Counted from the stretch's first letter, positions 1-32,000 are shown. The stretch is 32,000 nt of DNA from Candidatus Saccharimonadota bacterium (GCA_963706795.1 OY970170.1:360001-392000), one strand, 5' to 3'. The notes: generated by a model from the letters alone, not told the origin. Translations and numbers: made by a program.

Positions 1-562
1 GAGTTGCCTTGCCGGAGAGTCCAAAGGTCTTGCCGGTTGGATCGCTTCCAATCACATTCCAGACGAGCGGCCCATCCATCGAAAAGACGAATTCTTTGGT
101 TGGTATGTAGGTATCAAATCCATTTGAAGCAGTAGGTTTTCGTGGATCTTTCCAGATTTTATCACTCACACGCGAGAGCTCTTTACCTTTTTCGTAAAAG
201 AGCGGGATGATTTCAAATCCCTGTGATGCGATCGTACCAGAATAGCTTATGGCATTTCCGATAAGTGAATAGCTAATAAGCGGAGCTCGTTTGTCGTCAT
301 TTTTTGTAAAGATTTTGCCATCTGTACTCGAAAAATCGAGATCATCTGCAAATCATTCTCGATGATTTTTGGTTTTAAGAAGCGCGTATTCCATAGCTCA
401 CTCAGCAGCATGGTATGACGAAATCCCATCGTAGAGCGCCTTATTAATCTGATTTTCGGAGAGGAAGAGGAAGAGAATTCCAGCTGATAATACGATCAAA
501 AATCCCGTGAGAAGCACGGCCATAATCGTTGAGAATCCTCGATTTGATGGAATTTTGCGCAT
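1..562 (-). CDS. PilX/GspK-like minor pilin, partial (3' end leaves the window)
   Basis: ATG at comp(560-562) overlaps the upstream TAA (TAATG). N-terminus is MRKIPSNRGFSTIMAVLLTGFLIVLSAGILF, followed by YHAAE-G-AMEYALLKTK (PilX_N-like). Two in-frame TGA are read as Gly. The frame stays open to position 1. Absent from the standard-code track. Confidence 0.6.
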
Positions 563-1230
563 TAGTGGGACTTATAAAGTTTTTCGGCGATGGTCGTCTG
601 GACTGGAATAGTGAGCGCTTCAGCAATTTCGGTCGTAATTCCTTGGCGCGGTGCGGCGGTGAGCAAGAAAGTTATAGTTACCTTTCATTCAGAGTCCGCA
701 TTATTGGCAAAAGTCTTCGAATCAACACCAGATATAAAAAATCTGAGTGTCTTGATCCGCACACTCTTGTCCGTAATACGTATACGCTCACCATCCGGAA
801 GCTCGCGACCAAGATAACAATCAGTATCACTCGCAGCACATTTTGTAGGAAGCGAAGCAAGATTATCGTGCATAAGATAGTACGACAGCGTGCAATTTTG
901 ACCGCCTCATGGACAATTTTCTGGGGCTACTTTTGTGATGAGCACATCCGTTCCTGAGCTCGTATAATTGGTTCGTCCCGCCATAACATTGCAGCCAGTC
1001 GCCACGGCATTCATCTGATCGTAGCAAGCAAATGCAATACCATTGTCACGAATATCTTTGGCGATAATCTCTGTCACATTTCTCGCATTTTCTTGGAGTG
1101 AGCGAGCAACAGAGAGGCGCTTATTGAGATTGATGATATTGGAATAGATACCAAAAACACTCACCATCACAAATGATAAAATAGTGACTGCGATAATAAT
1201 CTCTATGAGCGTGAAAGCTTTTTTGTTCAT
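562..1230 (-). CDS. PilW/GspJ-like minor pilin (prepilin N-terminal methylation motif)
   Basis: MNKKAFTLIEIIIAVTILSF followed by SLQENARNVTEIIAKDIRDNG. Track ORFs 907..1230 and 685..873 are joined through TGA at comp(907-909) and comp(685-687). TAA at comp(562-564). Confidence 0.7.
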
Positions 1231-1850
1231 TATTTTTTCCAGTCAGTGAGTATGGTGTGCATGGCGTATTCGCGATAATCTCACTCCGTCGTCGCGAGGA
1301 CCGCAGTAATTGCGAGCGCAGAAGGTACCACTCAGACACTATCTTTTACTTCCTCAATTTGAACAAAGGTGTAGTAGGGCGTGGATTTTGCACCGACGCA
1401 ATCGTGAGTATAACGTCCGAGTTCATCGATACAAAGTCTGATTTCGGAGCTTCCAAGTGGAGCGTTTGCCTCGGATGACACCTTTGTTTTCGCGTCAAAA
1501 GTACCGGTCGCGATCTTTTTAAGAGCGATGGGGCTTTGAGTTGTATAGCGGTTTTGGATGGTATAGTATCCAGGTGAAAGTTCGCAATTTGCAGCACTGC
1601 TACAGATCGACATTTCAGTGAGTCCTTTCAGGGAATTCCAATTGCGAAGCGCGAGGTAATTGGTATCGCGGATACTCTTTACGAGCTCCATCTGCTCGCG
1701 GATAAGATTGGCCGCAAGGATTTCTTGCTTGGAGCGAAGCGAGAGATTCATCGCGCTTCTCACGAGCGAGTAGGCTCACAAAAATCAGACAGTGAAGATG
1801 AGTATCGCCACCATGACTTCTATGATCGTAAATCCTTTGTGCGATCGCAT
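1230..1850 (-). CDS. PilV/GspI-like minor pilin
   Basis: MRSHKGFTIIEVMVAILIFTV-G-FL-G-AYSLV. Extends track ORF 1332..1763 on both sides through four in-frame TGA. TAA at comp(1230-1232) overlaps the next ATG. Confidence 0.7.
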
Positions 1851-1851
1851 A

Positions 1852-2376
1852 TTATTGAATGACGAAATTTTTAGCAAGCGACCCCGTAGCGACACCTTTG
1901 AGACCCACAATTCCACCACTTGCAGTGATCTGCGAAGTGGTATTTCGGATTTCGATCTTTCAGCTCGGAGCTCGGAAAATTACCATGATTTCTGGAGAGC
2001 TTGGAGTGGTATCAAGTGTCGAAATCTCGACCCGATCCTCGAGTCGTAATTGCTCAACCATGATAGTATTCGCACCGAGATTAAAATCAGAAGTTCCTCT
2101 TTGTAATGCTCTCATTTGGGTAGTTTTTTCGCCCTTTTTGAGATAGACGGCCATATCGGCGTTTTTGGAGGTGCCCGCAAAAGTATAACCCGTTGTAGAG
2201 AGGAGTTTTGCTTTATTTATGAGCTGTTCGATGCGCTCGGAGGACATGGCTACACGGGATTTATCCGCATAAAAGCTGTAGGGTGCATACGCAAGTGTCA
2301 TCAAAATCCCACCGATCGCGATAGCGACCATGAGTTCTATGAGTGTAAAAGCGTGACGAGACTTGCACCATTGCAT
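1852..2376 (-). CDS. FimT/GspH-like minor pilin
   Basis: MQWCKSRHAFTLIELMVAIAIGG gives a short prepilin leader if the ATG at 2376 is used; the track start at 2409 would give an implausibly long hydrophobic leader. Read through TGA at comp(1960-1962). TAA at comp(1852-1854). Confidence 0.65.
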
Positions 2377-2412
2377 GCCCACAGTGTAGGCAAAAACAAC
2401 GAAAATCAAAGC

Positions 2413-3501
2413 CTATCCAACCGTATCCGTAATCTTGAGAACAGCCGAAAATATCGCAAAAGCGAACCAGAGTACAAACATTCCTGCAATGAGGACCGCA
2501 CCTGGCTCAACAAACTTCACAAGCGTCGCAACCGAGGAGTCCACTTCCCTCGTATATTGCGCAGCGATCTTTGCACAGATTTTATTGATCGTAGAAGTAC
2601 GCTCACCCGCCCCAAGAAGTTGAATAAAATCCTGGGTAAATAGCGCATGATGCGGATCGATTTTTTCGAAACTGTCGGTGATCTTCATACCCGTTTCGAC
2701 GAGACGAGAGATTTCGGAGATGGCTTCTTCGTAGATGAGATTATTGGTGGATTCACCAGTGAGACGGAGCGTTTTTACGATCGGAATTCCTGCTCAGAGG
2801 AGGAGTCCAAGTGTCGTAGAAACTCGAACAATGAGATAATTACGATAGACCTTGCCGACCAGTGGCAATGAGAGAATAACTCGATCTATATGCTTGCGAC
2901 CCTGGTAGGTATTCGCATATGAAATCAACGCAACAATTACTCCGATCACTCCAAAGGCGAGAAGCAAAAAATGATTAGCGATGAAGTTACTCGTAACAAT
3001 GAGCGAAACCGTAACCGCTGGCAGATCTGTACCCGCATTTTCAAAGAGTGGAAGCAGTTTTGGTACGACAAAAACCATGATAATAGTCACGGCTGCCACC
3101 AAAAAGATGAGGATGATCATCGGATAGGTCATCGCTCCTTTAAGCTTTGCAGCAAGGTCTTCACGATCTCTGAGTTCGGTCGCGAGACTCATAAATGAGC
3201 GATGGATCGTTCCTGATTGTTCACCTGCTTCAATAATAGAAACTTCGCCTCGATCAAAGGTACGAGGAAGTTTCTTCATTGCATTACTCATGGAGTCACC
3301 GGACTCGACGAGCATGAGGAGATCGCTGGCATCGCGATAAAATTTTGGATTTTCGGTTTTAGCACAAAACGAGCGAAGTGCATCGATAAATGTCACTCCC
3401 CCATCTACGAGATTAGCGAGATGCTCATAAAAAAGCGCTTTTTCTTTGAGGGAAATACGATTCCAAAAATGTACGGTTACCTCTTGATTTTCTGATTTCA
3501 T
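2413..3501 (-). CDS. pilC: Type IV pilus assembly platform protein PilC (GspF family)
   Basis: Track ORFs 2794..3501 and 2413..2688 share a frame and are joined through TGA at comp(2794-2796). The model has the two-repeat GspF architecture, 362 aa, and ends in TAG. Confidence 0.9.
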
Positions 3502-3504
3502 GGT

Positions 3505-4056
3505 CTACTTGAGGTAATAGAGTCCGAGCTGCACACTTGCCGATACTGGGGCCGAAGCATCTGTATCCATTGGGAAAGTAAGTCCTTTTACAAGATAACG
3601 ACGCTTCCCATATACACCTGTGAGATCATCAATAAATGTATTAAGTCTCGCAACAGAATCCGCCTGAATAGAGAGTCCCACAGACGCGAGAGAAATACCA
3701 GACGGAAGTCGCTCACCTGGATTGAGAGACACTGAACCAATCGAAACTCCTGAACCAGAGACTGCAAAAATACTCTCAAGGATCTGGTCTTCGCGGTAAT
3801 TACCAGCATAACGAACTACATCTGCCTGCGCTGTATCAGAAGCCACAGATTGCTTGAGCGTATTAAGTGAATCAAGCGTTTTTCGGTAGCCTTCTACTTC
3901 ACGTGTTACATCCTCAAGATTAGAGGATTTTTCCATCGAAGAATAGTAGAGATCATAGGTGAAAAATCCACCAATGAAGAGACCAACGAGGACGAGAATA
4001 ACCGGAATGAGATTACCTTTTGAGCTCTGAAAGCGCTCGGAATTTTGTACGTTCAT
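3505..4056 (-). CDS. PilO-like pilus assembly protein (TM helix, coiled coil, C-terminal domain)
   Basis: Uninterrupted 183-aa ORF with an N-terminal TM segment (LIPVILVLVGLFIGGFF). Sits between the pilN-like gene and pilC. Ends in TAG. Confidence 0.55.
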   Translation of the reverse strand: MNVQNSERFQSSKGNLIPVILVLVGLFIGGFFTYDLYYSSMEKSSNLEDVTREVEGYRKTLDSLNTLKQSVASDTAQADVVRYAGNYREDQILESIFAVSGSGVSIGSVSLNPGERLPSGISLASVGLSIQADSVARLNTFIDDLTGVYGKRRYLVKGLTFPMDTDASAPVSASVQLGLYYLK

Positions 4057-4057
4057 G

Positions 4058-4615
4058 TTATTTTGTCTTAAATTCTACACCAAAACTGCGCTTTGATTCA
4101 TCACCATTTACACTCGTGATTGGCTCAAGTTGGAGGGAGCCTGAGTAAGTGTTATTTCTATAATCCCCTACGAGTTTAATCACTTTACGAATCGCATCAT
4201 CCGCGAGCCCCTTCTCAGCATTGACGGACGTATTGATATGACCACCCTGATATGCAAAGCCCGTAAATTGGATGAGGTAGTCACGATGAATCTTGTCGAT
4301 TTCACGAACATAATTTGAGACGATGGAAGACTCAATATTTTTAATGATCTCAGGTTTTGCCTGCGAAAGAATCTCAGCCGCCTGAACAACAGGATCCATT
4401 TTGAGAGCAACAATAGAAGTCTGGTATTCTGATCAGCGTTTCTTTTCTGCTGCAATGTCATTTTCGAGAGACATATTGCGATAGACAAAATACGCAGTGA
4501 AGAGCACGACGATTGCCAAAAACGCACCTGCACCCATCATGGCGTAGGAAGCGTGAGGTTTTTTTGGACTGAGCTCGTCAAGAGAGTCGTTGTTTTGGGT
4601 AGGATTCATAGGCAT
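4058..4615 (-). CDS. PilN-like bitopic membrane protein
   Basis: Track ORFs 4433..4657 and 4058..4399 are joined through TGA at comp(4433-4435). One TM segment (AMMGAGAFLAIVVLFTAYFVY). The start is uncertain: ATG at 4657, 4615 or 4609. Confidence 0.45.
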
Positions 4616-4698
4616 GTGATATATTGACAGGCTACCACGAAGTGCAAATGGTTGCAAATTTCCGCTTGCAGTGATGAAATACTCTCTAAAATGGCGCT

Positions 4699-5094
4699 AT
4701 GATTTTACGTGAAAACGACCTCCAAAACCTCAATCTCGACCTTGTACCCTGAGACACAGTCTTTCTTTTTGGGGATCTGGGCGCTGGCAAAACTACATTC
4801 GTACGACAATTGATCCAAAAGCTTACTGGTCAATCGACCATCGTTCGGAGTCCGACTTATACGTATTTTTCAAAATACGAACCTAATATTTATCACTTCG
4901 ACCTCTATCGAATTGATGACTACGAGACTTTTACGAATATTGGCGCAGAGGATATTTTTGAGGATGACACTGCTATTCGATTTATAGAATGGCCAGAAAT
5001 TCTGGGCGATCAATATGCACCTACGATATCGATCACACTCAAAAAAATCCCCGATGATGAGGGATTAAGAGAGGTTATAATTGAGCGATTTTAA
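4699..5094 (+). CDS. tsaE: tRNA t6A37 biosynthesis ATPase TsaE
   Basis: MILRENDLQNLNLDLVP-G-DTVFLFGDLGAGKTTFVRQL. The P-loop becomes visible only after reading TGA 4750-4752 as Gly. Continues into track ORF 4810..5094. Ends in TAA. Confidence 0.85.
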
Positions 5095-6047
5095 GCTTCA
5101 ACTGTTGTTCGCTCATCAAAGAGCACCTTCGTAAAAAAGAAATATCCAACCATAGCGTACACCGCAATAATACCTGTTTTTCCGTAAGTGAGCGAGATAT
5201 CAAAAAGTGCATGAACTCCTATCGCGATGAGAAACGCAAAGAAAAATCGGATATATGTCGCAGAGGTTCGAGCCACAACATATCGCCCAAATCCAAGTGC
5301 AAAAATGAGTGCAGCAAAGACATGTAAGAGAAGCGATACAACCGAACGGGATGCAAGTGTACCAATGAATGCCGCGGAACCGATCCCATCATCGAGCGCG
5401 AGATTTATGAGATAGTAGACATTCTCCAAAAATGCGAAGCCAAGCGCGGTAAATACCGTAGCAAGCGCTATATATTTTGGGGTGACTTCTGCGATGTCGA
5501 GCGAAGCATAGACTGCGAGATGTTTGGTGGATTCTTCGAGAGCACCGACAAAGAGATACGCGAGCGTAATCGAAGAAAGTGAAGCGAGCGTTGCTCCGAG
5601 CAGCTCAATATGTACTCCTGAGCTATTGATTCCTCCTGATGATCCAAGGAGGAGACTCAAGGCCAAAAACACGATCGCAAAGGAAGCGATCACTAAAAGC
5701 GACCGTACCAAAAGACCTATTCGATCGAAGATTTGACGGAAAAAAATGACCGAGATGACCATCAAAAATAGCAAAATTGGAAGCCCATATGAGAGCAAAA
5801 AACTCTCCAAAAAAGCAACTGAAAGACTCGGAGCTTGCAGATATGAAAAAACACTCTGCGTTGAGAAGTACTCAAATATTTCCTTGGAATGCACGATCGG
5901 AATAACACTCAGTCCGCCCGCGAGAATCCCAATAAAAAACCGTGTCGCAGAAAGTGGAGAATTCTGCGCATAAGAAAAAAGATATCCCCAAAAAACAATC
6001 GGGAGAAATACGATAATAATCGAGAATATTATTCGTAAGATATCCAT
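5091..6047 (-). CDS. PrsW-family intramembrane metalloprotease
   Basis: Polytopic 318-aa ORF with the motifs ALEESTKH, GFAFLENVYY, LLHVFAA and HALFD. No TGA. Its TAA overlaps the tsaE TAA (convergent genes, shared TTAA). Confidence 0.6.
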   Translation of the reverse strand: MDILRIIFSIIIVFLPIVFWGYLFSYAQNSPLSATRFFIGILAGGLSVIPIVHSKEIFEYFSTQSVFSYLQAPSLSVAFLESFLLSYGLPILLFLMVISVIFFRQIFDRIGLLVRSLLVIASFAIVFLALSLLLGSSGGINSSGVHIELLGATLASLSSITLAYLFVGALEESTKHLAVYASLDIAEVTPKYIALATVFTALGFAFLENVYYLINLALDDGIGSAAFIGTLASRSVVSLLLHVFAALIFALGFGRYVVARTSATYIRFFFAFLIAIGVHALFDISLTYGKTGIIAVYAMVGYFFFTKVLFDERTTVEA

Positions 6048-6254
6048 CTATTTGTTTTTCTTATAGATCTCATAGCCACCAAATCGGATAGGATCACCAT
6101 TCGATTTTTTCCCTCCAGTAGCAAAAATACCGCTTAAGAAAAGAAATTGTACGCCGATCGCTATACAGATAAATGCAAGGATATACGCAATGAGGTCAGG
6201 CTTAATGAGCACAAGGACTCCAAAAACGATCAAGATAGCTCCAGTAGTTCGCAT
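6048..6254 (-). CDS. Small two-TM membrane protein
   Basis: 68-aa ORF. Its TAG directly abuts the downstream ATG at 6047, and it lies 3 nt after the murA stop, so operon placement is likely. Confidence 0.5.
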   Translation of the reverse strand: MRTTGAILIVFGVLVLIKPDLIAYILAFICIAIGVQFLFLSGIFATGGKKSNGDPIRFGGYEIYKKNK

Positions 6255-6257
6255 ATG

Positions 6258-7523
6258 TTATGGGGTTACTCCGATATATTCGACATGTGCGCCCAGTTTA
6301 CGCAATTTTCCGATAATGTCTTCATATCCGCGATCGATGTATTCGACATTGGTAATGAGGGTCTCACCTTCAGCAACGAATGCTGCGAGGATCATCGCGA
6401 CTCCCGCTCTGAGATCCCAACTCGAAACCGTAGCACCGCGAAGCTGAGTTTTCCCGAATACAAGTGCTGCATTTGGATTAAGAATAGCAGGATGCCCCTT
6501 CATTTTTTCGATTTCAAAGAGCCAATTGAGACGGCTTTCGTAGACGATTTCTTCAACACGACTCACTCATTCTGCCTGTGTGAGAAGAATCACAAATGGA
6601 GACTGAAGATCCGTTGGAAATCCTGGGAAAATATTCGTCTGCATACGTACTGGCTTTAGCGAATCAATCGAACGATAGACGCGAAGTGTATCTCATGGAA
6701 GTACTTCATATCGAACTCCCGCCTCAGTAGCCTTTGTGAGGAATGCTCTGAGATCCTTGATACGAGCATCGAGAATATCGACATAAGTCTCAGCCGCAAG
6801 AGCCGCTGCAACAACAAATGTACCGGATTCAATATAATCTGCGATTACTTCGCCATGAGCTTCGTCAGCGAGTTTTTCGACACCGATGATCTCAATGGTG
6901 TGGTCATATCCGATCGAAATCTTTGCACCATGTGCATTTAAAAAATCTACAAGCGCCACAACATGCGGCTCAATAGCTGAGAGGAAGATGCGAGTAGTTC
7001 CCTTTCGAAGAACATTTGCGAGGATGAGTGACTCTGTAGCCGTTACTGCAAAACCAGCCGAAAACTCAACATCACCTTCTTTCGCTGTACCCGAGAGAGA
7101 AACTCCAGAGTCGGAATAACTTCCTTCGTAGCCGATATCAAAAAAACCGGACATGAGGAAGTCGATGGGGCGCTTACCAATATTACATCCACCTGGATAT
7201 GGCAACTCTACCGAACCAAAGGCACGAAGAAAGGCTGGCACCAAAAGAATACTCGCACGAATTTTTTTCACGAGATCGAGATCCATTCCCTCACCATGCA
7301 TCGAACCAGTTTCGATCGTAAGCGTTCAATTACTGAGCTCAACCTGTACACCAACACTCTTTGCAATCGCCAAAAGCGTGTGAACATCACTAATATTTGG
7401 CACGTTTTTGAGAACTGCCTTCTTAAATAAAAGTGCCGCACCAATGAGTGGAAGTGCTGCATTTTTAGAACCCGAGATTTGTACCGTACCTGAGAGCTTC
7501 TGTCCGCCTGTAATTTTGAGCAT
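6258..7523 (-). CDS. murA: UDP-N-acetylglucosamine 1-carboxyvinyltransferase
   Basis: Three same-frame track ORFs (7326..7523, 6693..7301, 6258..6566) are joined through TGA at comp(7326-7328), comp(6693-6695) and comp(6567-6569). Gives 421 aa. VELSN-G-TLTIE and LTQAE-G-VSRV match the Gly positions I recall in E. coli MurA (ERNGSV, VAEGTG). Confidence 0.95.
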
Positions 7524-7526
7524 TTT

Positions 7527-8225
7527 TTAGAGTATATTACGAAGTGCTGCGATATTGAATGCATAGTCCATCTTCATCGATCAGAGCATGCCGATGTAGG
7601 CGTCATAGCCTTCGAGATTGATTTTTTTGACGATCATGGCTGAGGTTTCGAGCTCGGGGATGATATTTTCTTCACCGAGGAAGACAGAGACGCGACGTGA
7701 GACTTCGAGGGTTTTGAGGAGGTCTATGAAGTGGTGTTTATTCTCAAGAACCTTAATAACATTGTAGGCCTCAGCTCCAAGTAAGAGGCTGTTTTTTTCG
7801 AGGAAGTTCGTGAGTCCGAGATAGTAATTAGCGCCCACATCAGGAATACACCCAAAGGTGATTTCTTTAGTGATCTTGGTCAGTTTTGCAACGATGGAAT
7901 AGAGTGCATCGTCGACTCTTTCGCGATCAGCCCGCTCGATGAGCTCGTTTTCGGCCTCAATGAATTGGGGCATCATATGCTCCATGAGGTAGTCAACGAA
8001 GACGCGTATACCGCGAGTGGTTGGTAGTCGACCTGCTGAATTGTAGGGCTGGAATATGAGGCCCATTTTTTCGAGACTCGCCATGTCATTTCGCACGGTC
8101 GCACTCGAAACACCCATATCGTGTTTTTTGAGAAGTGATTTCGAGCCGGTAATTTCTCCGGTCTTAATGTATTCCTCAACGATAATCTTGAGTATCTGGA
8201 TCTTTCGAAGGTCTATTTTCTTCAT
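7527..8225 (-). CDS. hrcA: Heat-inducible transcription repressor HrcA
   Basis: MKKIDLRKIQILKIIVEEYIKTGEITGSKSLL...VSSATVRNDMASLEKMGLIFQPYNSAGRLPTTRG. One TGA at comp(7581-7583). TAA at comp(7527-7529). Start chosen at the ATG at 8225, not the track start at 8333. Confidence 0.85.
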
Positions 8226-8243
8226 GCAAAATTGAATGTCTGA

Positions 8244-8271
8244 ATTGTAAGGGAAGCAGAGGGAAAGTAAA
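8244..8271 (-). promoter_or_regulatory. Putative sigma70-type promoter for hrcA-murA
   Basis: On the minus strand: TTTACT, 16-nt spacer, TACAAT, about 18 nt upstream of ATG 8225. Confidence 0.4.
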
Positions 8272-8306
8272 CGTGATTTTTGAAGCCATTTTTTGGACGA
8301 TTTTGA

Positions 8307-8334
8307 TTGACAAAACAAAGTTTTTGAATACAAA
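8307..8334 (+). promoter_or_regulatory. Putative promoter for the small gene at 8380
   Basis: TTGACA, 16-nt spacer, TACAAA. Confidence 0.45.
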
Positions 8335-8379
8335 GCTCACACACATTTTTTGTCTCATAGTGGGACTAAGGAGAAAGTT

Positions 8380-8742: not shown

Positions 8743-8785
8743 GCCAAGACGACGAAAAGGAATCTAAATGAATTTTCAGTCTTAC

Positions 8786-8820
8786 GGGATATTACACACT
8801 GTGTGATATCCCATTTTTTT
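8786..8820 (+). terminator. Rho-independent terminator
   Basis: GGGATATTACACA / TGTGTGATATCCC stem of about 13 bp, followed by ATTTTTTT. Confidence 0.8.
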
Positions 8821-8842
8821 GCCCTGCGAGGGAATCTGCAAA

Positions 8843-8870
8843 TTGACAAATGAGGCATTCAGAATACAAC
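8843..8870 (+). promoter_or_regulatory. Putative promoter for the small gene at 8909
   Basis: TTGACA, 16-nt spacer, TACAAC. Same architecture as the promoter at 8307-8334. Confidence 0.45.
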
Positions 8871-8908
8871 GGTAGCGCATTGTTCACTCTCTAGAAAGGA
8901 GGTCCGAT

Positions 8909-19032: not shown

Positions 19033-19035
19033 GCG

Positions 19036-23889: not shown

Positions 23890-23903
23890 GAAGATTTTTT
23901 TAT
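23871..23903. terminator. Bidirectional terminator (AAAATCTTCC / GGAAGATTTT arms)
   Basis: AAAAAATCTTCC ggcata GGAAGATTTTTTT. The GGDEF stop codon lies in the loop. Confidence 0.8.
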
Positions 23904-23921
23904 TCAGAATGAGTGCGAATA

Positions 23922-24080
23922 CTAGTTCGGCAGATTATTGTTTACCTTATTGCGACTGAGTTCAACCAAGAACTTAATAGCTGCGCGCGGATCAACCGTA
24001 CGATTGAACCCATCTCCAACAATGCAATTTTCTGGAAGACGGATTTCAGGACTTTTCGTTTGGTATGTTTGTGTATTCAT
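23922..24080 (-). CDS. Possible small ORF (52 aa)
   Basis: MNTQTYQTKSPEIRLPENCIVGDGFNRTVDPRAAIKFLVELSRNKVNNNLPN. Below the track's length cutoff. AT-rich upstream region containing TTGACC. Ends in TAG, just before the terminator at 23871-23903. Confidence 0.3.
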   Translation of the reverse strand: MNTQTYQTKSPEIRLPENCIVGDGFNRTVDPRAAIKFLVELSRNKVNNNLPN

Positions 24081-24154
24081 ATCCCAGATTGGTTAGATAT
24101 GAGATAATTAAACCATATAAAATATATTGGTCAAATATTGAATACACTTTTTTA

Positions 24155-24490
24155 CTATTTGAAGATCGAAAACAATACCGCGTTCACTACCGAGAGCACC
24201 AAACTAAAGAGGAGCGCCCACCAGAAACCATTTACTTTAAATCCTGGAACGAGCTGCGAGACCAAGAGGATGATCAGCGCATTGATTACAAAGGTAAAGA
24301 GCCCGATAGTGACGACATTAATCGGCAGCGTCAATAGGAGAAGAACCGGCTTTAAAAAAGTATTCACAACCGCAAGTACGACTGCTACGAGCACTGCAGA
24401 ACCCGCTCATGCCACCGCAACTCATGGAAGTAAATATGATGTCAACCCTACTGCAAGTGCAGTGATACATATACTAATGATAAGATTCAT
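24155..24490 (-). CDS. Four-TM membrane protein, PF04020-like (phage holin 4_2 / YvlD family)
   Basis: MNLIISICITALAVGLTSYLLP-G-VAVA-G-AGSAVLVAVVLAVVNTFLKPVLLLLTLPINVVTIGLFTFVINALIILLVSQLVPGFKVNGFW. Extends track ORF 24155..24394 upstream through two TGA. Ends in TAG. Confidence 0.65.
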
Positions 24491-24617
24491 GTGCAAAAAG
24501 AAAGGGATACGAAATACCGATAAGTACATCAAAATCTCGTTCATCTGCTTCGGCAAGCAATAGTCACTCTATGTCGAATGGCTGAGATTACAATTTTTAA
24601 GCAATTTCGCGCTCAAT

Positions 24618-24649
24618 AAAAATCTTCCGCTTAAAAGCGGAAGATTTTT
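24618..24649. terminator. Bidirectional terminator with the same arms as 23871-23903
   Basis: AAAAATCTTCCGC ttaaaa GCGGAAGATTTTT. Confidence 0.8.
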
Positions 24650-24650
24650 A

Positions 24651-25181
24651 TTAGACAACAGACTCATCGAGTCAACCATCCACAAATTCATAAATTTGAG
24701 TGGCAGTGAATGACCCCTGTATTACTGGTAATTCCTCTATTCCAAGATGTTTTCCTGCAAGCGTAAGCAGAGCAGTATCTTCGAGCGAAGCATATGGGAA
24801 GAAATCTGATTGATAGTCATTCCATTTCATACGTTCCACATATCCTCTATCAAAATGCATAGCCAGAAGGAGTGCGAGGCATTTTTTGGATTCTTCTATG
24901 CGATCGGCGAGCAAATGAGTCTGTGCTCATCGAATAAGGATATCGCGCTCACTTCGCCCCATCGAGATACCACCCGTGTCGTAGCCGGTCCAGACTATTC
25001 GAATACATTGCAAGATGATTTCTCTGGGATTTGGATAGCTTTCTGGTCTATCAGCAAGTTCTTCGATTACTTCCATTGCCTTCCTGCGGTAATGCTGGAT
25101 CTGCCCCTCATTCGCTAATCCTCATAAAACATAGACTTGCGATAACTGCGTTATAGAAGTGCTGTCAGGAGGAGTCAACAT
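24651..25181 (-). CDS. Hypothetical protein (176 aa), apparently helical
   Basis: ATG at 25181. Track ORF 24672..24914 is extended in both directions through three TGA. TAA at comp(24651-24653). Contains IRGAQTHLLADR, an R-x4-H spacing. I recognise no family. Confidence 0.5.
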
Positions 25182-25208
25182 CTGGACAAAGATGAGATAA
25201 TTGTTTTG

Positions 25209-25236
25209 ATTATAGCAGCGCCTGAGAAAATTCAAA
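25209..25236 (-). promoter_or_regulatory. Putative promoter for the 176-aa gene
   Basis: On the minus strand: TTTGAA, 16-nt spacer, TATAAT preceded by TGc, about 27 nt upstream of ATG 25181. Confidence 0.45.
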
Positions 25237-25240
25237 CAAT

Positions 25241-25271
25241 AAAAAGCCCGTATTTGCATACGAGCTTTTTT
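25241..25271 (-). terminator. Rho-independent terminator closing the tRNA transcription unit
   Basis: On the minus strand: AAAAAAGCTCGTAT gcaa ATACGGGCTTTTT. Confidence 0.6.
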
Positions 25272-25281
25272 GAGATTTTAT

Positions 25282-25395
25282 TGGTGCCCAAGGGGGAATT
25301 TGCCCTCTGGGCGCCTCGGGCAGAGTCCAAATCATTGGACTCTTGAAATGCTCACGCATTTCCCCTCGGTTCAAGTCCTGTGAGTTCATCTTTTG
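25282..25395. other. Structured element of unknown function with a tRNA-like 3' end
   Basis: Three strong hairpins at 25283-25315, 25323-25342 and 25346-25361. Bases 25282-25296 match the tRNA-Leu 3' end (25441-25455) at 14 of 15 positions. No canonical cloverleaf could be drawn. Confidence 0.35.
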
Positions 25396-25397
25396 AG

Positions 25398-25428
25398 TTT
25401 AAAAGTCCCCCGCTTTCGCAGGGGACTT
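25398..25428 (-). terminator. Hairpin/terminator just downstream of tRNA-Leu
   Basis: On the minus strand: AAGTCCCCTGC GAAA GCGGGGGACTT followed by TTTAAA. 10-bp stem with a GNRA loop and a short T-run. Confidence 0.5.
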
Positions 25429-25440
25429 CTTAAAATCAAA

Positions 25441-25525
25441 TGGTGCCCGAGGGGGGACTTGAACCCCCACACCTTTCGGCATACGCACCTCAAGCGTACG
25501 TGTCTACCAATTCCACCACCCGGGC
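25441..25525 (-). tRNA. tRNA-Leu (anticodon GAG), type II, CCA encoded
   Basis: Hand-folded cloverleaf: acceptor GCCCGGG/CTCGGGC, anticodon arm TACGC-TTGAGGT-GCGTA, long variable arm, T arm GGGGG-TTCAAGT-CCCCC, then ACCA. 85 nt. Confidence 0.9.
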
Positions 25526-25691
25526 GACAATCTTTATTCTAAATTGAGGATTTCTTCTAAACTTCTCTTGTGGCGAGAGCATTGATGAAATTTTTTCGAA
25601 GATCGAGTGCCGTAGCGAAACATACTTATGTACGTTGAGCGAGGAACGGAGATCTGAGCGAAAAGTTCGCAATGATATCGTTACAACCTTA

Positions 25692-25768
25692 TGGTGCACC
25701 CAGTAGGAGTCGAACCTACAACCAACGGCTTCGAAGACCGCTACTCTATCCAGTTGAGCTATAGGTGC
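25692..25768 (-). tRNA. tRNA-Arg (anticodon TCG), CCA encoded
   Basis: Acceptor GCACCTA/TGGGTGC, D arm GCTC..GAGT, anticodon arm GCGGT-CTTCGAA-GCCGT, T arm GTAGG-TTCGACT-CCTAC, then ACCA. 77 nt. Confidence 0.9.
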
Positions 25769-25798
25769 AGATAGTTCTCTTGTTGAGAGCGTGGCGAG

Positions 25799-25826
25799 TA
25801 TAGCGAAAGGCAGTAATTTGTAAAAT
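25799..25826 (-). promoter_or_regulatory. Putative promoter for the tRNA-Arg/tRNA-Leu unit
   Basis: On the minus strand: TTTACA, 16-nt spacer, TATACT, about 30 nt upstream of the tRNA-Arg 5' end. Confidence 0.45.
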
Positions 25827-25884
25827 TATTTTTGCGCTTCCATGATGATTTTTTGTGCAACTCGCTTGGTCAAAGTCAGATACC

Positions 25885-25914
25885 AAAAATAAAACCCCGT
25901 ACGGGGTTTTATTT
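25885..25914 (-). terminator. Terminator after secF
   Basis: AAAACCCC gtac GGGGTTTT with flanking A and T runs, immediately after the secF TAA. Confidence 0.8.
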
Positions 25915-26877
25915 TTAACGCTTCTTGGTGATATCGTAGAGGAGCGGTGCCGCGATACAGATAGAAGAGTACGCTCCAATGAATGTACCAAATATGAGCG
26001 CGAGAGTGAATCCCTTGATCGCCTGTGGTCCAAAGAAGAACATTGCAACGAGTACAATTACAATCGTAAGTGATGTGAAAATCGAACGTGTAAGTGTATC
26101 GTTGATAGAATTATTGATGAGTTCACCAAATCCCTGCTTCTTCGCAATTGGAAGACGGAGATTTGAGCGGATTCGGTCCATTACGACGATAGTATCGTTG
26201 ATCGAGTATCCAAGTACTGTGAGGAGCGCAGTAATAAAGAATGTATCGATTTTATATTCTGGAAAGAAGTGCGAAGCAATAACGTAAAATCCGAATGTAA
26301 TAATTACGTCATGGAAGAGTGAAACCGCAGTAACCGCTCCGAATGAAAAACTCGTAAATCCTTCGATTGATCCTCGGAATGCCCAAGCGATGTAGAGGGA
26401 GATGAAGAGAATAACCATTGCGAGCGTGAGGTACGCAGTCTTTTTGATGTAGTCTCCGAATGATTCACCAACATTGATGTAGCGCGAGAGTGAAGCCTGT
26501 GAAGACTTACCAAGTGCTGTAGTAATAGCATCTCGAAACTGCGTCTTTGCAGCGTCGAATGCCTGGTCATTCATGCCTTCGAGGCGAGAGAATCCAGCTT
26601 CTACAACAAATTTGTTTTCACCAGTAATGCGATACACGAGAGTATTATTTACAACGTGCTTACCATTGACCATGACAGCATCTTTGGCCGCTTCTACTGT
26701 TTTGGTAGTAGTAGGAAGGTCGAGAGTGCCCTTGTAATCGAACTCAGCCTGGATACCACCAGTCATGTCGATACCGAGATTCATCGGGAATACAAACGGT
26801 GCAGCAGCAGAAATAACTACGAGCGCGAGCGCAATTGCGTAGTAAGAAAATCGGTTTTTTATAAAATTGAAGCTCAT
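25915..26877 (-). CDS. secF: Protein translocase subunit SecF
   Basis: MSFNFIKNRFSYYAIALALVV, GIDMTGGIQAEFDY, and the C-terminal six-TM region (YSINDTIVVMDRIR). 320 aa from ATG 26877. No TGA. Ends in TAA. Confidence 0.85.
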   Translation of the reverse strand: MSFNFIKNRFSYYAIALALVVISAAAPFVFPMNLGIDMTGGIQAEFDYKGTLDLPTTTKTVEAAKDAVMVNGKHVVNNTLVYRITGENKFVVEAGFSRLEGMNDQAFDAAKTQFRDAITTALGKSSQASLSRYINVGESFGDYIKKTAYLTLAMVILFISLYIAWAFRGSIEGFTSFSFGAVTAVSLFHDVIITFGFYVIASHFFPEYKIDTFFITALLTVLGYSINDTIVVMDRIRSNLRLPIAKKQGFGELINNSINDTLTRSIFTSLTIVIVLVAMFFFGPQAIKGFTLALIFGTFIGAYSSICIAAPLLYDITKKR

Positions 26878-26899
26878 AGCTATGGGAAAAGATGGCTCT

Positions 26900-26927
26900 T
26901 TTATAAGTCGGAAGCCTCGAAAGTCAA
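26900..26927 (-). promoter_or_regulatory. Putative secF promoter
   Basis: On the minus strand: TTGACT, 16-nt spacer, TATAAA. Confidence 0.45.
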
Positions 26928-26946
26928 CAGAAAAGGGTCTCAATTG

Positions 26947-26975
26947 TTGCCTACATGAGCCACTTGCGCTATACT
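26947..26975 (+). promoter_or_regulatory. Putative promoter giving a leaderless mRNA for the PrgI-like gene
   Basis: TTGCCT, 17-nt spacer, TATACT, then 6 nt (gaagcc) to ATG 26982. Confidence 0.45.
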
Positions 26976-26981
26976 GAAGCC

Positions 26982-27398
26982 ATGCAGTATAAGATTCCCG
27001 TACAAATCGAAAACGAAGACACGATTTTTCTCGGCTTGTCTATCAGACAACTAGGAATTATCATGATCGGTGGCGGTATTGCCTATTCGATATTTAAGTC
27101 TCTAGAATGAGGAATTGGCCCTCAAGCGGCTTCAATTCCAGCGATTATTATCATCATAATAGCGCTTTTTGTGGCACTTTTCCGTAATTCGGAAATGACA
27201 TTTTTGCCATTTATTCTCAATATGATTCGACTCAATCTCAATACAGGAACCCGCGTTTGGTCAAAATGAACTGAGAGTTTCTCAAATCTTGAGATCGGAT
27301 ACGTCGTTTCATTCGCGAATGCGACTAAAAAATACGAAACAAAGAATTCTATCCACGAAATCTGAGACGCACTCAACGATAATCTCTGAAAGCTCTAA
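26982..27398 (+). CDS. PrgI-like (VirB3-like) small membrane protein
   Basis: MQYKIPVQIENEDTIFLGLSIRQLGIIMIGGGIAYSIFKSLE-G-GIGPQAASIPAIIIIIIALFVALFRNSEMTFLPFILNMIRL. Two TM segments. Four in-frame TGA. Invisible in the standard-code track. TAA at 27396-27398. Confidence 0.55.
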
Positions 27399-27400
27399 AT

Positions 27401-28126
27401 ATGTCAGACAAGACTACTGCATCGGTAAAAACCGCAAAGAAGCCTCAAAAGGATTCGACTACACAAAAATACATGCCATTCTCGGAAATTCGAGACAATT
27501 GTATGATTATGAAGGATGGATCAACTCGTATGGTGCTACGAGTTCAGGCGCTCAATTTTAATCTCAAAAGCGAGGAAGAGCAGGATTCGATCATCTATGG
27601 GTATCAGCGGTTTTTGAATTCTCTACGCTTCCCTATCCAGATTATTGTTCGTTCACTCAAGGTGGATATTGAGAGCTATCTAATGAAGCTCAAAAATCTT
27701 GCGATCAAGCAGCAGAACCCCCTCCTTCAAGAGCAGACATATCGATATATCGATTTTCTAACAAATCTGATCGATATGGCTCAGATTATGAAAAAGGATT
27801 TTTATATCGTCGTTCCTTATGACGAAGATCTCGAACGTTCTGTACGAGATACTGGAATGTTTGGAATGTTCCGATCATTTTGGAGTGCTATTACTGCCGA
27901 AGAAACCGTTGGTTCTATCCGAGAAAAACGTCGCAATATCGACGTCATGCGCAAGGCAAATCTCGAACGTGTGAGCACTATTAAAACTACACTCGAAGGA
28001 ATTGGGATCAAGGGTGAAGAACTCAAAAAAGATGAGCTCATCAAGCTGCTTTACGACTACTACAATCCAAAGGTAAACGGAGAAAATAAGATCCGTGAAA
28101 AGATGGAAAATCTCAATGTAGAGTAA
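27401..28126 (+). CDS. Protein resembling only the N-terminal domain of Gram-positive VirB4/PrgJ-type conjugation ATPases (241 aa)
   Basis: Starts 2 nt after the PrgI-like stop. TQKYMPFSEIRDNCMIMKDGSTRMVLRVQALNFNLKSEEEQDSIIYGYQRFLNSLRFPIQIIVRSLKVDIESYL. No Walker A. Ends at TAA, followed by a terminator. Confidence 0.5.
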   Translation: MSDKTTASVKTAKKPQKDSTTQKYMPFSEIRDNCMIMKDGSTRMVLRVQALNFNLKSEEEQDSIIYGYQRFLNSLRFPIQIIVRSLKVDIESYLMKLKNLAIKQQNPLLQEQTYRYIDFLTNLIDMAQIMKKDFYIVVPYDEDLERSVRDTGMFGMFRSFWSAITAEETVGSIREKRRNIDVMRKANLERVSTIKTTLEGIGIKGEELKKDELIKLLYDYYNPKVNGENKIREKMENLNVE

Positions 28127-28150
28127 TTCACCGAAAAATACACGAAATAT

Positions 28151-28188
28151 AAAAAACCTCAGTATATCCCAATATGCTGAGGTTTTTT
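28151..28188 (+). terminator. Rho-independent terminator
   Basis: AAAAAACCTCAGTATA..TATGCTGAGGTTTTTT. Confidence 0.75.
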
Positions 28189-28542
28189 ATGTCCACACGA
28201 GACATCTGAGCGAGCGGTGAAGATATTGCGGAAGCATATCTTTTACGCAATGACTACACTATCCAAACAAATAACTGGACCGTTCCTGGTGGAGAATTAG
28301 ATATCGTCGCCGAAAAAAATGGCATCGTTATTTTTGTGGAAGTAAAATTTCGTACGAGCACACGACTTGGGCATTCGAGAGAGAGCCTTGGAACTCTCAA
28401 AAAGAGATATTTCCGCAGAAGTGGCATGCTCTATGCAACAAAACATGGACTTCGCGAAGAACAGATCAGATTCGACTTTATTGCGATACAAAAAAACTCG
28501 AGTGGATACCATCTCGAGCATTTTTGTAATATTGAAGTGTAG
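28189..28542 (+). CDS. yraN: YraN-family (UPF0102) endonuclease-like protein
   Basis: MSTRDI-G-ASGEDIAEAYLLRNDYTIQTNNWTVPGGELDIVAEKNGIVIFVEVKFRTS...RFDFIAIQ. One TGA at 28207-28209. Extends track ORF 28336..28542. Ends in TAG. Confidence 0.75.
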
Positions 28543-28545
28543 GTT

Positions 28546-28971
28546 CTAGACTTCCTCGCTATCGAGACCGGCTTTGAGTGAATCGATACGAGCTTGATCA
28601 GCATTTGCACGCTCACGCTCTTTTGCTTCTCCGATATAGATTTCGCGAAGCTGTTGCCATCCGTCACGTGATTTGATGACGAGATCTTTGATCACTTCAC
28701 CTTCTTTAGTAAGGAGTTTGCGAAATTCTTCACGCTCATCTTCAAAGACCTTGTGGAGTTCGTCGATTTGAAATTGTGAAAGCGTAGGAATAGCATCAAC
28801 TACGCGCTTCTTTTCAGAAACTGAGAGTGAGAGAGAGTGTTCGAGGAGCTCTGCAAAATAGATTTCATCAAACTCTGTGAGCGGATGAACGGACATGAGC
28901 TCATAAATGAGGGCATTGTCTTCTTTGTATTGAGCGAGGGCTACACCCTGAGGGCTGTCGTCTTGAGTCAT
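28546..28971 (-). CDS. Hypothetical acidic helical protein (141 aa)
   Basis: Uninterrupted ORF. Its ATG lies 1 nt after the yebC-family stop, which suggests co-transcription. Ends in TAG. Confidence 0.55.
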   Translation of the reverse strand: MTQDDSPQGVALAQYKEDNALIYELMSVHPLTEFDEIYFAELLEHSLSLSVSEKKRVVDAIPTLSQFQIDELHKVFEDEREEFRKLLTKEGEVIKDLVIKSRDGWQQLREIYIGEAKERERANADQARIDSLKAGLDSEEV

Positions 28972-28972
28972 A

Positions 28973-29743
28973 TTAGGTTCGAAAACGGGTTTTTTCTACG
29001 TGATTGAGGATCTGTTCTGCAATCGATTCGGGAATGATTGCATTGTGCCAAACGGCAACAACATCTTCGTCATCTTCGAGAGTCTCGATGAGTGTATGCA
29101 CCTTGAGAGCCTTGTCAAACTCCTCAAGTGTAACGGTTACTGTGGGGATATATTCAAAATTTGCACTCGTATAGGCAATATTTTTTTGTGCTAAAAACTT
29201 CGCAACCTTCATGAGGTCTGACCAGACAGTTTCGATCAAAACGACATCATTTTCAACTCGATAGTCTTCAGCCCCTGACTCGATAATGATTTCTTCGAGC
29301 TCAGGTGTTACCTCACTATTTGGAAGCTCGATAATACCGCGATATTTAAATGCAAAATTAGAAACCGAACCCGTCTCACCAAGTGTACCAGAACATTTTG
29401 AAAATGCATGTCGCATACTCGGCGCAGTACGATTGCGATTGTCTGTGAGGGATTTTACGACTACCGCAACTCAGCCAGGTCCGTAACCCTCATAAGTAAC
29501 CTCTTCGATGGCGACTGCGCCTTTTTCTTGTCAGCTACCATTGCGAATGGCGCGGTCGATATTGTCATTTGGAACATTCGCTTTTTTGGCTGTCGCAATA
29601 GCCTCAGCAAGGGTGCTATTCTCGTGTGGATCCGCTCATTTTTGGGCAGCTAAGGCAATGAGTTTAGCGTGGATCGCAAAAACTTTGCCACGTTCTTTGG
29701 CATTTTGTTCTTTTTGTTTCTGTACAACTGGTCAGCGTCCCAT
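28973..29743 (-). CDS. YebC/PmpR-family transcriptional regulator
   Basis: [28 protein letters not shown]...[23 protein letters not shown] continues into track ORF 28973..29416. Four TGA. 256 aa. Ends in TAA. Confidence 0.85.
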
Positions 29744-29791
29744 AGTTTCGTAATGGCAATGAAAGTCGAATTATAGACGAGAATACCGACT

Positions 29792-30511
29792 TTACAAGGA
29801 TTTTGTAAGCATGAACAGGTATTCGAGATTTCAGGCTTCACCCTCGAGCGTGGATGATGCATCTGCGACAATATAGAGTCCAAAAAGTGAAACAAATGCC
29901 CTAAAATCCGTGAGTACAGAAGCAACAATAAGATCATTTTTAGGGACACCAGTCTTACGAAGATTGCGCGCACCTACCTCAAATTGAGGTTTAAAAAGCG
30001 CAACAATGCTTCCTGTTTTTGTAAGTAGTTTTTGTGCATGTGGAAGTACTTCTCGAAGCGAAATAAATGACACATCGATGGTAATAATCTCGAACAGTTC
30101 GGGACTTTGCCATGTGCGAATATCAGTATTTTCGAGTGATGTAATCTTAGGATTTCATCTGAGCGATTCATGCAGTTGTGCTGATCACACGTCGAGCGCC
30201 ACCACATGCTTCGCTCATTTTTCGAGAAGCACTTGAGTGAACCCCCCTGTAGAAGATCCGATATCGAGACAATGTTTCCCTGAGATATCTATAGGATATT
30301 CCTCAAGAAATCCAGCAAGTTTCATAGCACTACGCGCCACATAGCGCAAACGAGGATCGTCTTTTACCTGAACTTCGTGCGTTTCGAGCACTTCAAAAGA
30401 AGCTTTTTTTGTAGGCTTTCCATCGATAAAAACAAGCCCAGATTCGATTAAGAATTGGGCTCTATTACGAGAAAGTGTGAGTGATTGTGCAAGATACTGG
30501 TCGAGTCGCAT
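29792..30511 (-). CDS. tlyA: TlyA-family rRNA 2'-O-methyltransferase (S4 domain plus FtsJ-like domain)
   Basis: Track ORFs 30215..30511 and 29831..30073 are joined through TGA at comp(30215-30217), comp(30185-30187), comp(30155-30157) and comp(29831-29833). Motifs: LDIGSSTGGFTQVLL, LDV-G-SAQLHESLR-G-NPKI, EGEA-G-NLEYLF. Ends in TAA. Confidence 0.85.
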
Positions 30512-30537
30512 GTGAAACTTCAGGGAAAGATAATACG

Positions 30538-31401
30538 CTATATTCGTGTCTTCATGAATTCCCTCAATTTAGGCCCCAGATCTTCTCTGGCAAGTGCATA
30601 ATCAATCGTAGCCCTAAGAAATCCAAATTTATCACCCGTGTCATAGCGCATTCATTCGAGCTCAAGCCCGTAGATATCGCGATCTGCGAGCATGGCCATG
30701 AAGGCATCCGCAAGGCGTTTTTCGTTGTCTTTACCACTTGACGCTTTTTCGATGTAATCAAAAATATCAGGAGTCAGAACGTATTTACCAATTACACCCA
30801 GTCTCGAGCTTGTCTCGCTGGCTTTTGGTTTTTCAAGGAAGTGATCTACCTTATGGGCGCGTCATTCGGATGTTGTTGATTCGATGATTCCATAGCTCGA
30901 AACCTGATCATCAGTCACTCGCTCGAGCGCTATAATTGGCGATTGTTTCTGATGAAAAGCCTCAATAAGTTGAGCAGCTCAAGGAACACTATGCGAGATG
31001 AGATCATCCCCAAAAAGCACCAAAAATGGCTCATTGCCAACAAAATGTCGTGCATACATAAGCGCATCCCCATCACCGCGAGGCAGGGGTTGGCGAACAT
31101 AGGCAATATTTGCAAGATTTGAAACCTTTTCGACTTCTGCCAACTCTTTAACTTTACCTTTTTCTACGAGCGTGTATTCGAGCTCAAATGATGTATCAAA
31201 GTGATCCTCAATGCTTCGCTTCCCGCGCCCTGTAACAATAACAATATCCGTAATACCCGAAGCAACAGCTTCTTCTACAAGATATTGGATTACCGGCTTA
31301 TCAACAATCGGCAGCATTTCTTTTGGCTGAGCCTTGGTAGCAGGCAAAAATCGTGTCCCGAACCCTGCGGCTGGGATGATGCATTTGGTGATTGGTTTCA
31401 T
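30538..31401 (-). CDS. galU: UTP--glucose-1-phosphate uridylyltransferase
   Basis: [35 protein letters not shown]. Extended through TGA at comp(30979-30981), about comp(30862-30864) and comp(30652-30654). [25 protein letters not shown]. 287 aa. Ends in TAG. Confidence 0.9.
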
Positions 31402-31434
31402 GAAATTTTTGCTTATGATAGATGACTTTTTGTT

Positions 31435-31908
31435 TTATCCAAGCTTCTTCTTATTTTGCTTTCGGTGGCAAATATAGAGAGTGCGATAGACATAAGTAGT
31501 CGACGCTAAAAGTAGCAATACACCAATTGTTCGAACTTCATAGCCAAAAAATGGCAAACTCGACATGAGCGAAGACAGTCCTAGATATGTCGCAATAGTA
31601 ACACTACATGCAGGACAACCAGTCACCAAAATTGAGAAAAAAGACCCTAAAATTCCTGCTCAATCTTTTTTTTCGAATCGAGTAAAATGGATAATTTTAT
31701 AGGTCGAGAGCCCAAAAAATATTGGCGCAAAAATCAGCGTCAGCACACTTAAAAAAATCTCATAGTAATAAGCAAAAGAGCCAAGATTACCAAGAGTAAG
31801 CGCGAAGTCAGAAAAAGTGTATTCGATATATCCAAACACCACGAGCATCAGAAGAGTCGGAATGACGAACGCTCGAGAGCGCAGAATACGAGAGAGATTA
31901 TTCGTCAT
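31435..31908 (-). CDS. Polytopic membrane protein with an intramembrane CPAC (CxxC) motif
   Basis: Track ORFs 31660..31977 and 31435..31629 are joined through TGA at comp(31660-31662). LVTGCPACSVTIATYLG. Start uncertain: ATG at 31908 or 31950, or GTG at 31977. Ends in TAA. Confidence 0.5.
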
Positions 31909-32000
31909 GACCACCACAGGCTGCAGGATCTGGAAGACTATTCTGCTCATGTGCCGAAGATGGAACCATAGCAGCACGTGCTATTACCGCATCATTTGTC

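Follow-up and report, generated by a model that had tools for sequence, protein, structure and literature searches.

The subject of this analysis is the codon UGA in the window, that is, the whole 32,000-bp stretch OY970170.1:360001-392000 of assembly GCA_963706795.1 (Candidatus Saccharimonadota bacterium; 44% GC). When only TAA and TAG are taken as stop codons, this stretch resolves into 33 close-packed gene models on both strands, some of which abut without a gap (e.g., at 2412/2413, 3504/3505, and 7526/7527). Twenty-five of these models carry at least one in-frame TGA, for a total of 68 in 9,618 sense codons. The window is almost certainly a piece of the chromosome of an uncultured bacterium of Gracilibacteria type, within the Patescibacteria (candidate phyla radiation, CPR), that uses translation table 25, in which UGA encodes glycine and only UAA and UAG terminate translation. 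Glycine, rather than tryptophan or a stop, is supported by the residues found in standard-code homologs, by codon interchange with a close relative, and by the lineage of the named relatives.

Gene models and in-frame TGA codons

The 32 complete gene models all terminate at TAA (23) or TAG (9), and none ends at TGA, as an earlier interpretation of the window (the sequence-only reading) had held. The eight genes that lack TGA altogether are dnaB, secF, a prsW-family gene, def, and four others. That interpretation had also counted at least 20 recognisable genes as broken under the standard code; the breakage extends to 25 genes, but those with a Pfam family number 18, slightly below its figure. 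The six TGA codons for which it gave coordinates are each TGA in the given frame and strand: on the complementary strand, 7326-7328 and 6567-6569 in murA, 9333-9335 in ftsK, 30185-30187 in tlyA, and 30652-30654 in galU, and on the given strand, 4750-4752 in tsaE.

Reading through TGA restores genes of recognisable architecture (Table 1). Single-stretch Pfam matches run through the TGA codons of MurA (residues 5-407 of 421), FtsK, MurE, YebC, TlyA, GalU, TsaE, T2SSF, GGDEF, PF04020, PrgI, UPF0102, and HrcA. In FtsK, the match to the gamma domain (670-726) spans the last TGA of the gene. Moreover, homologs of solved structure align end to end over the TGA positions. When the window was tiled with non-overlapping open reading frames (ORFs), the set in which TGA is sense performed best (coverage 0.88, median ORF 247 aa), compared with table 11 (0.78 and 151 aa) and with sets in which TAA or TAG was made sense instead (coverage 0.80-0.81); long antisense ORFs weaken this contrast, so that the argument leans on homology instead. 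Counted as glycine codons, the TGAs make up 68 of 656, or about 10%, which corresponds to 70 per 10,000 codons.

The TGA codons are also present in an independent assembly. Two Logan contigs of run ERR12037365 (L082 and L083) match the window with 100% identity over 13.9 kb (2155-16047) and 6.1 kb (25887-32000), respectively; because an independent assembly agrees at every position over about 20 kb, the TGAs are not sequencing errors. The standard-code calls stored for these contigs display the fragmentation that the sequence-only reading described: MurA is split into pieces of 65, 202, and 102 aa and T2SSF into two pieces, while FtsK, ClpC, YebC, TlyA, and GalU are truncated. In the case of ClpC, the TGA lies in the N-terminal region and the public call is cut to 736 aa. 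Public collections likewise carry the proteins of this genome as standard-code fragments, such as a 147-aa C-terminal piece of YebC.

Table 1. TGA-containing genes of the window, with the residues (numbered by codon) aligned to TGA in proteins of solved structure and the codons at the TGA sites in the close relative L001
Gene	Position	Strand	Length (aa)	TGA codons	Pfam match	Residues in solved structures	L001 codons
murA	6258-7523	-	421	7326-7328, 6693-6695, 6567-6569	EPSP_synthase 5-407, one stretch	66: N/D/N; 277: N/N/E; 319: G/G/G (G of E. coli VAEGTG)	
yebC-family gene	28973-29743	-	256	29732-29734, 29636-29638, 29531-29533, 29471-29473	both domains	36: G in all five; 71: G, G, G, S, D; 91: G in all five	36: GGT; 71: GGT; 91: GGC
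tlyA	29792-30511	-	239	30215-30217, 30185-30187, 30155-30157, 29831-29833	S4 and FtsJ methyltransferase	99, 109, 227: G x3 each (3/3 distinct proteins); 119: N/S/Q	TGA, TGA, GGT, GGC
galU	30538-31401	-	287	30979-30981, 30862-30864, 30652-30654		141: A/V/V/C; 180: G/D/E/G; 250: G x4	GGT, GGG, GGG
murE	20390-21703	-	437	21218-21220, 20774-20776, 20591-20593	Mur_ligase_M and C	162, 310, 371: variable loops	GGG, AAT, GGG
ftsK	9291-11477	-	728	11085-11087, 9507-9509, 9333-9335	alpha, motor, and gamma domains	657: G/gap; 715: T (P. aeruginosa)/S (E. coli)	
tsaE	4699-5094	+	131	4750-4752	TsaE 13-116	18: G (T. maritima)/D (other structure)	
pilC (T2SS protein F family)	2413-3501	-	362	2794-2796	T2SSF, two stretches	236: S (M. 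xanthus PilC)	
clpC/clpB-type AAA+ chaperone	12173-14848	+	891	12515-12517	AAA, AAA_lid_9, AAA_2, ClpB_D2-small		
hrcA	7527-8225	-	232	7581-7583 (aa215)	HrcA C-terminal domain 89-222, containing the TGA		
GGDEF diguanylate cyclase	22396-23889	+	497	11 (densest in window)	GGDEF 287-423, spanning three TGAs	four sites, variable: R/N/K, L/A/P, gap/G/A, Q/Q; no W	
PF04020 (holin 4_2 family) membrane protein	24155-24544	-	129	24422-24424, 24407-24409	PF04020 19-123, full length		
PrgI-family protein	26955-27398	+	147	27108-27110, 27267-27269, 27363-27365, 27387-27389	PrgI		TGA at 3/4
yraN (UPF0102)	28174-28542	+	122	28207-28209	UPF0102		GGA
TPR-repeat protein	19036-19944	-	302	19849-19851, 19390-19392	TPR families		aa32: TTA; aa185: GGG
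four pseudopilin-like genes	2-562, 562-1230, 1230-1850, 1852-2376	-		2, 2, 4, 1 TGA	N_methyl motif in 3/4		
two large genes	14799-16391, 16363-17649	+		3, 6 TGA	no family (long TAA/TAG-bounded ORFs)		
gene without Pfam family	24651-25181	-	176	3 TGA	no family		no ortholog
membrane protein	31435-31950	-	171	31660-31662	no family		GGA
pilus-cluster gene	4058-4615	-	185	4433-4435	no family		

Residues and codons opposite TGA

The amino acid that UGA encodes was read from alignments to solved structures, all of which come from standard-code organisms; database relatives, whose translations follow table 4, 11, or 25 according to source, were not used as residue evidence. Over 24 TGA positions and 76 aligned residues, glycine occurs 35 times, cysteine once, and tryptophan never. 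Summed BLOSUM62 scores, averaged per position, favor glycine (+45.8) over asparagine (+9.6) and serine (+7.6), and tryptophan is among the worst fits (-62.8). A strict glycine majority is found at 9 of the 24 positions; with glycine expected at 7.5%, P = 3.5e-5. At conserved columns, UGA stands opposite the glycine of standard-code homologs, and, as described below, it interchanges freely with GGN and never with UGG.

Deeper alignments of individual families agree with this tally. In 78 standard-code YebC orthologs from Clostridia, which were taken as DNA and cover three of the four YebC TGAs for glycine columns, the residue is glycine in 77/78 at codon 36, 72/78 at codon 71, and 78/78 at codon 91. 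The TGA in the LLP-x-V motif of the PF04020 protein, assigned by the sequence-only reading to a conserved glycine, does lie in such a column (col41) that is glycine in 119 of 120 homologs, including those of Geoanaerobacter and Parachlamydiales; the second TGA of that gene (col46) faces glycine in 54 and serine in 49 of the 120. FtsH, which is encoded in the same genome just beyond the window (contig L083, 6.1 kb), has two TGAs, in the contexts LG-G-KIPKG and RALG-V/Y-T, and both are opposite glycines that are invariant in E. coli and Thermotoga maritima.

Not every TGA that had been assigned to a conserved glycine lies in such a column. The assignments for murA 6567-6569, tlyA 30185-30187, and galU 30652-30654 hold, with glycine in every structure aligned there (three, three, and four, respectively). 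Three others are weaker than claimed: for tsaE 4750-4752, the glycine is found in T. maritima, but the second structure has aspartate; ftsK 9333-9335 faces serine in E. coli and threonine in Pseudomonas aeruginosa; and murA 7326-7328 faces asparagine in 100 of 120 relatives and N/D/N in structures, with glycine (as NG-T) in three of the seven closest relatives and a gap in the pairwise alignment with E. coli. None of these sites is compatible with tryptophan.

Alignments of database relatives bear the marks of the code used to translate them. At MurA column 319, 85 of 120 relatives have glycine and 35 have an apparent tryptophan, the latter being the table-4 translation of TGA. Across the same alignment, 46 columns have a minority of such tryptophans, and in 36 of them glycine is otherwise the most frequent residue, which is the signature of table-4 mistranslation of glycine UGA codons. 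Many relatives are stored in table-4 translation, and one YebC relative accordingly has 18 tryptophans and a single glycine. Such entries put false tryptophan into alignments and profiles.

Codon pairing with a close relative provides an independent line of evidence. A scan of Genome Taxonomy Database (GTDB) species representatives yielded L001 (JBMOJK010000001.1, Patescibacteria group bacterium isolate Deming_bin.574; 44% GC), whose YebC is 87% identical to that of the window and which is syntenic over window positions 19,070-31,954 at 72-79% nucleotide identity. In 12 orthologs comprising 2,807 aligned codon pairs, 21 window TGAs could be compared: 13 are GGN in L001, 6 are TGA, and there is one each of TTA and AAT, which fall in the N-terminal region of the TPR gene (aa32) and in a MurE loop, respectively. 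For glycine to occupy no fewer than 13 of the 15 changed sites, P is ~1e-14, taking 6% as the glycine background. In the reverse direction, L001 TGAs are matched in the window by GGT (three), CGA (one), and the same six TGAs; the CGA falls in a def start that is probably over-extended. Window TGG is TGG in L001 at 16 of 17 sites, and no TGG-TGA pair occurs. Four sites that are uninformative in distant homologs, namely GalU 141, TlyA 119, and MurE 162 and 371, are all GGN in L001. A candidate MurA of the L001 genome (P0154) is only 56% identical to window MurA, as against 67-93% for the other window-L001 orthologs and 76-79% for other metagenomic MurA proteins; gene replacement, a paralog, or an origin of P0154 outside L001 could account for this divergence.

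A more distant relative, L002 (JAXLZO010000001.1, Candidatus Gracilibacteria bacterium STL-PAT4, a 1.28-Mb contig), has TGA for conserved glycines in the YEGYG and PGG motifs of its YebC, and TGA and GGN are swapped between it and the window at YebC codons 2 and 4. Furthermore, the best named matches of YebC, MurA, and the PF04020 protein all belong to Candidatus Gracilibacteria or Altimarinota (47-62% identity, judged by best matches).

Other explanations for the TGA codons

The mechanism of decoding would follow published work on the clade. A dedicated tRNA-Gly with anticodon UCA, carrying the glycine identity elements G1:C72, C2:G71, G3:C70, and U73, would read UGA, and release factor 2 (RF2, encoded by prfB) would have been lost, leaving no competitor for the codon. 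A UCA-anticodon tRNA and the absence of RF2 are reported with UGA as glycine in Gracilibacteria and Absconditabacteria (PMC8629427), and the reading of UGA as glycine has proteomic confirmation (PMC4032931).

Several observations weigh against assigning UGA to glycine. Both the decoding tRNA and the loss of RF2 are argued by analogy with the clade, and no UCA-anticodon tRNA is present in the window, L001, L002, L082, or L083, of which the window and L083 together cover 38 kb of the genome; the sequence-only reading had placed this tRNA outside the window. The only tRNAs of the window and of the related loci from recoded genomes are tRNA-Leu(GAG) and tRNA-Arg(UCG), and Rfam adds nothing further in the window. 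Approximately half of the TGA positions lie in variable columns, where homologs have N, D, S, A, K, and other residues and which alone say only that UGA is not tryptophan. Composition is not discriminating: tryptophan would rise from 0.48% to 1.18% if TGA encoded it, glycine would stand at 6.8% if TGA encoded glycine, and both values are plausible. Finally, codon 4 of the yebC-family gene is set by MAFFT opposite the invariant tryptophan of GHSKW in all 78 standard-code orthologs. This N-terminal motif is near-universal in YebC/TACO1 proteins. At GHSKW, however, there is a three-residue length difference, the version in this clade being the shorter (M-G-R-G-P), and the gene begins ATG-TGA-AGA-GGT-CCA in L002 versus ATG-GGA-CGC-TGA-CCA in the window, so that both glycines flip between GGN and TGA (first four codons at 29732-29743 in the window and at 10001-10012 in both L001 and L002). 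Codon 4 is read as glycine because L002 has GGT there, and the sequences suggest a lineage-specific replacement of tryptophan by glycine rather than decoding of UGA as tryptophan.

Among the alternatives, the one that fares best retains glycine as the main product and adds ambiguity: a minority of UGA would be decoded as tryptophan by the near-cognate tRNA-Trp(CCA), or U34 wobble of tRNA-Gly(UCA) would cause some UGG codons to be taken for glycine, at a mild cost that leads to avoidance in the most constrained genes. This reading is improbable. Potentially ambiguous reading of UGA and UGG has been raised for the clade (PMC8629427), and proteomics of a BD1-5 bacterium at the highest stringency recovered one tryptophan peptide against 40 glycine peptides (PMC4032931). 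Use of TGA in the window is indeed strongly uneven (dispersion P ~5e-5): TGA accounts for 39% of the glycine codons of the GGDEF gene, 2% of those of clpC, and 0% of those of dnaB, secF, def, and prsW. The same unevenness is equally explained by expression-linked codon bias or by a foreign origin of the 22-25 kb stretch, and TGA is found at invariant glycines of essential proteins, including the Walker-region LG-x-KIP of FtsH, YEGYGPG-x of YebC, and DV-x of TlyA. Decoding fidelity cannot be measured from sequence alone. It is improbable, to about the same degree, that UGA in this genome is decoded with measurable glycine/tryptophan ambiguity or at a cost and is selected against in the most constrained genes. 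Were this so, code-25 genomes would show graded tolerance of UGA, and that gradient would be a record of how the reassignment came about.

The highest TGA shares are found in adjacent genes: the GGDEF gene at 39%, the PF04020 gene at 29%, and the gene at 24651-25181 at 21%, compared with 10% overall. These genes lie in a stretch of about 3 kb (22200-25400) that has 40.8% GC, versus 44% for the window, and no nucleotide match in the otherwise syntenic L001, which instead has a GGDEF gene of 33% identity, containing one TGA, next to a different gene. The stretch may be a variable island exchanged among organisms in which UGA encodes glycine, or its TGA content may reflect expression-linked avoidance of UGA.

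An assignment of UGA to tryptophan (table 4), the code of Mollicutes and several insect endosymbionts, has a vanishingly small probability. Many database relatives of the window proteins are deposited in table-4 translation with W at the TGA sites, the tryptophan content would reach a normal-looking 1.18%, and YebC codon 4 lies opposite an invariant tryptophan. However, none of the 76 structure-aligned residues is tryptophan; the 2,807 codon pairs with L001 include no TGA/TGG pair, while TGG is kept at 16 of 17 sites; the minority-W columns of the relatives most often have glycine otherwise; and YebC codon 4 is GGT in L002. The peptidoglycan genes and the CPR-type relatives, moreover, show that the organism is not a Mollicute. 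Residue columns and codon pairing together rule out table 4, in keeping with the preference for glycine over tryptophan expressed in the sequence-only reading.

Equally negligible is the proposition that UGA is still a stop, with the broken genes, which public standard-code calls list as separate short genes, explained by pseudogene formation, by errors in sequencing or assembly, by programmed readthrough, or by selenocysteine insertion: the 68 interruptions are of one codon type and affect 25 genes that include the essential murA, murE, ftsK, and tsaE, no gene model ends at TGA, the independent Logan assembly is identical, and six TGAs are kept in place in L001 at 72-79% nucleotide identity, with protein conservation continuing downstream of each. 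The identical assembly and the TGAs conserved in place rule out pseudogenes and sequencing error, and selenocysteine is ruled out by the number of sites (68 in 32 kb) and the lack of cysteine columns (1 of 76 aligned residues), Rfam having found only the two tRNAs.

Neighboring features and known genetic codes

The left end of the window (1-4700) holds a type IV pilus-like cluster, in which pilC is accompanied by the four pseudopilin-like genes and by two or three small membrane genes that match no Pfam family. At 26955-28126, the PrgI-family gene precedes one that carries a TraC-like label in its stored Pfam annotation. Both the pilus-like cluster and the PrgI/TraC-like pair are typical of CPR bacteria. 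In the two large genes at 14799-16391 and 16363-17649, TGA is inferred to be sense from context only. MurE seems to lack its usual N-terminal domain, as alignments to solved MurE structures begin at structure residues 72-131. Farther upstream, the ORF overlaps def on the opposite strand and does not resemble that domain, and alignment with the L001 ortholog covers the same 437 aa. A region of about 1 kb (8226-9290; 41.4% GC) that separates hrcA from the end of ftsK holds no convincing gene. The only sizeable ORF of that region (8909-9367, plus strand) has no Pfam match and overlaps the 3ʹ end of ftsK, and Rfam finds no family match in 8226-9290.

The two tRNA genes lie on the minus strand at 25441-25525 and 25692-25768, and both have a genome-encoded CCA. 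The pair is kept beside secF in L001, and the more distant Gracilibacteria locus L002 has both tRNAs together as well. The one with anticodon UCG has an A73 discriminator and the D-loop sequence GGATA and was judged by eye to be of the arginine type.

This tRNA is relevant to a second code change. Reassignment of CGA and CGG to tryptophan has been reported in Absconditabacteria and possibly in some Gracilibacteria (PMC8629427), which belong to the same broad clade, and it would here be an additional change on top of UGA as glycine. For CGA, nothing points to such a change: the codon behaves as arginine, being common (123 occurrences, or 127 per 10,000) and pairing with CGN or AGA in L001. CGG occurs 15 times, with only two sites comparable in L001, too few to judge.

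The practical consequences concern annotation. Table 11 breaks 25 of the 33 genes here, a kind of fragmentation that the sequence-only reading had pointed out, and table 4, which has been used for many deposited relatives, puts a false tryptophan at each glycine UGA. Table 25 is needed for all inference that builds on this genome, whether it concerns domain content, the number of pseudogenes, coding density, or reconstructed metabolism. The window adds one more genome to those known, from a moderately GC-rich lineage (44%) in which UGA makes up about 10% of glycine codons, and leaves the picture of code evolution unchanged. The observation and its table-25 interpretation are correct, and the biology is already known: the reassignment has been recognized since 2013 in Absconditabacteria (SR1) and Gracilibacteria (BD1-5) (Campbell 2013 and Rinke 2013, as cited in PMC8629427).

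Of the known systems in which UGA has become a sense codon, table 4 is used by Mycoplasmatales, Entomoplasmatales, Hodgkinia, Zinderia, Nasuia, Stammera, and some Eggerthellaceae. The window resembles these in that the same codon has changed from stop to sense and the same fragmentation results under table 11. Unlike them, it has glycine columns and interchange with GGN, never tryptophan or TGG, and it belongs to another lineage. With NCBI table 25 (Candidate division SR1 and Gracilibacteria), the likeness is closer. The window shares in-frame UGA at conserved glycines and UAA and UAG as sole terminators. Its genome is likewise small and of CPR type (1.27-Mb contig) and includes genes for type IV pili, its nearest named relatives are Candidatus Gracilibacteria, and the GC range of the table-25 clade, 0.21-0.53 (PMC8629427), takes in the 44% of the window. 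Although its closest relative, L001, is labelled only as a Patescibacteria group bacterium, the window shows no difference in kind from the table-25 systems.

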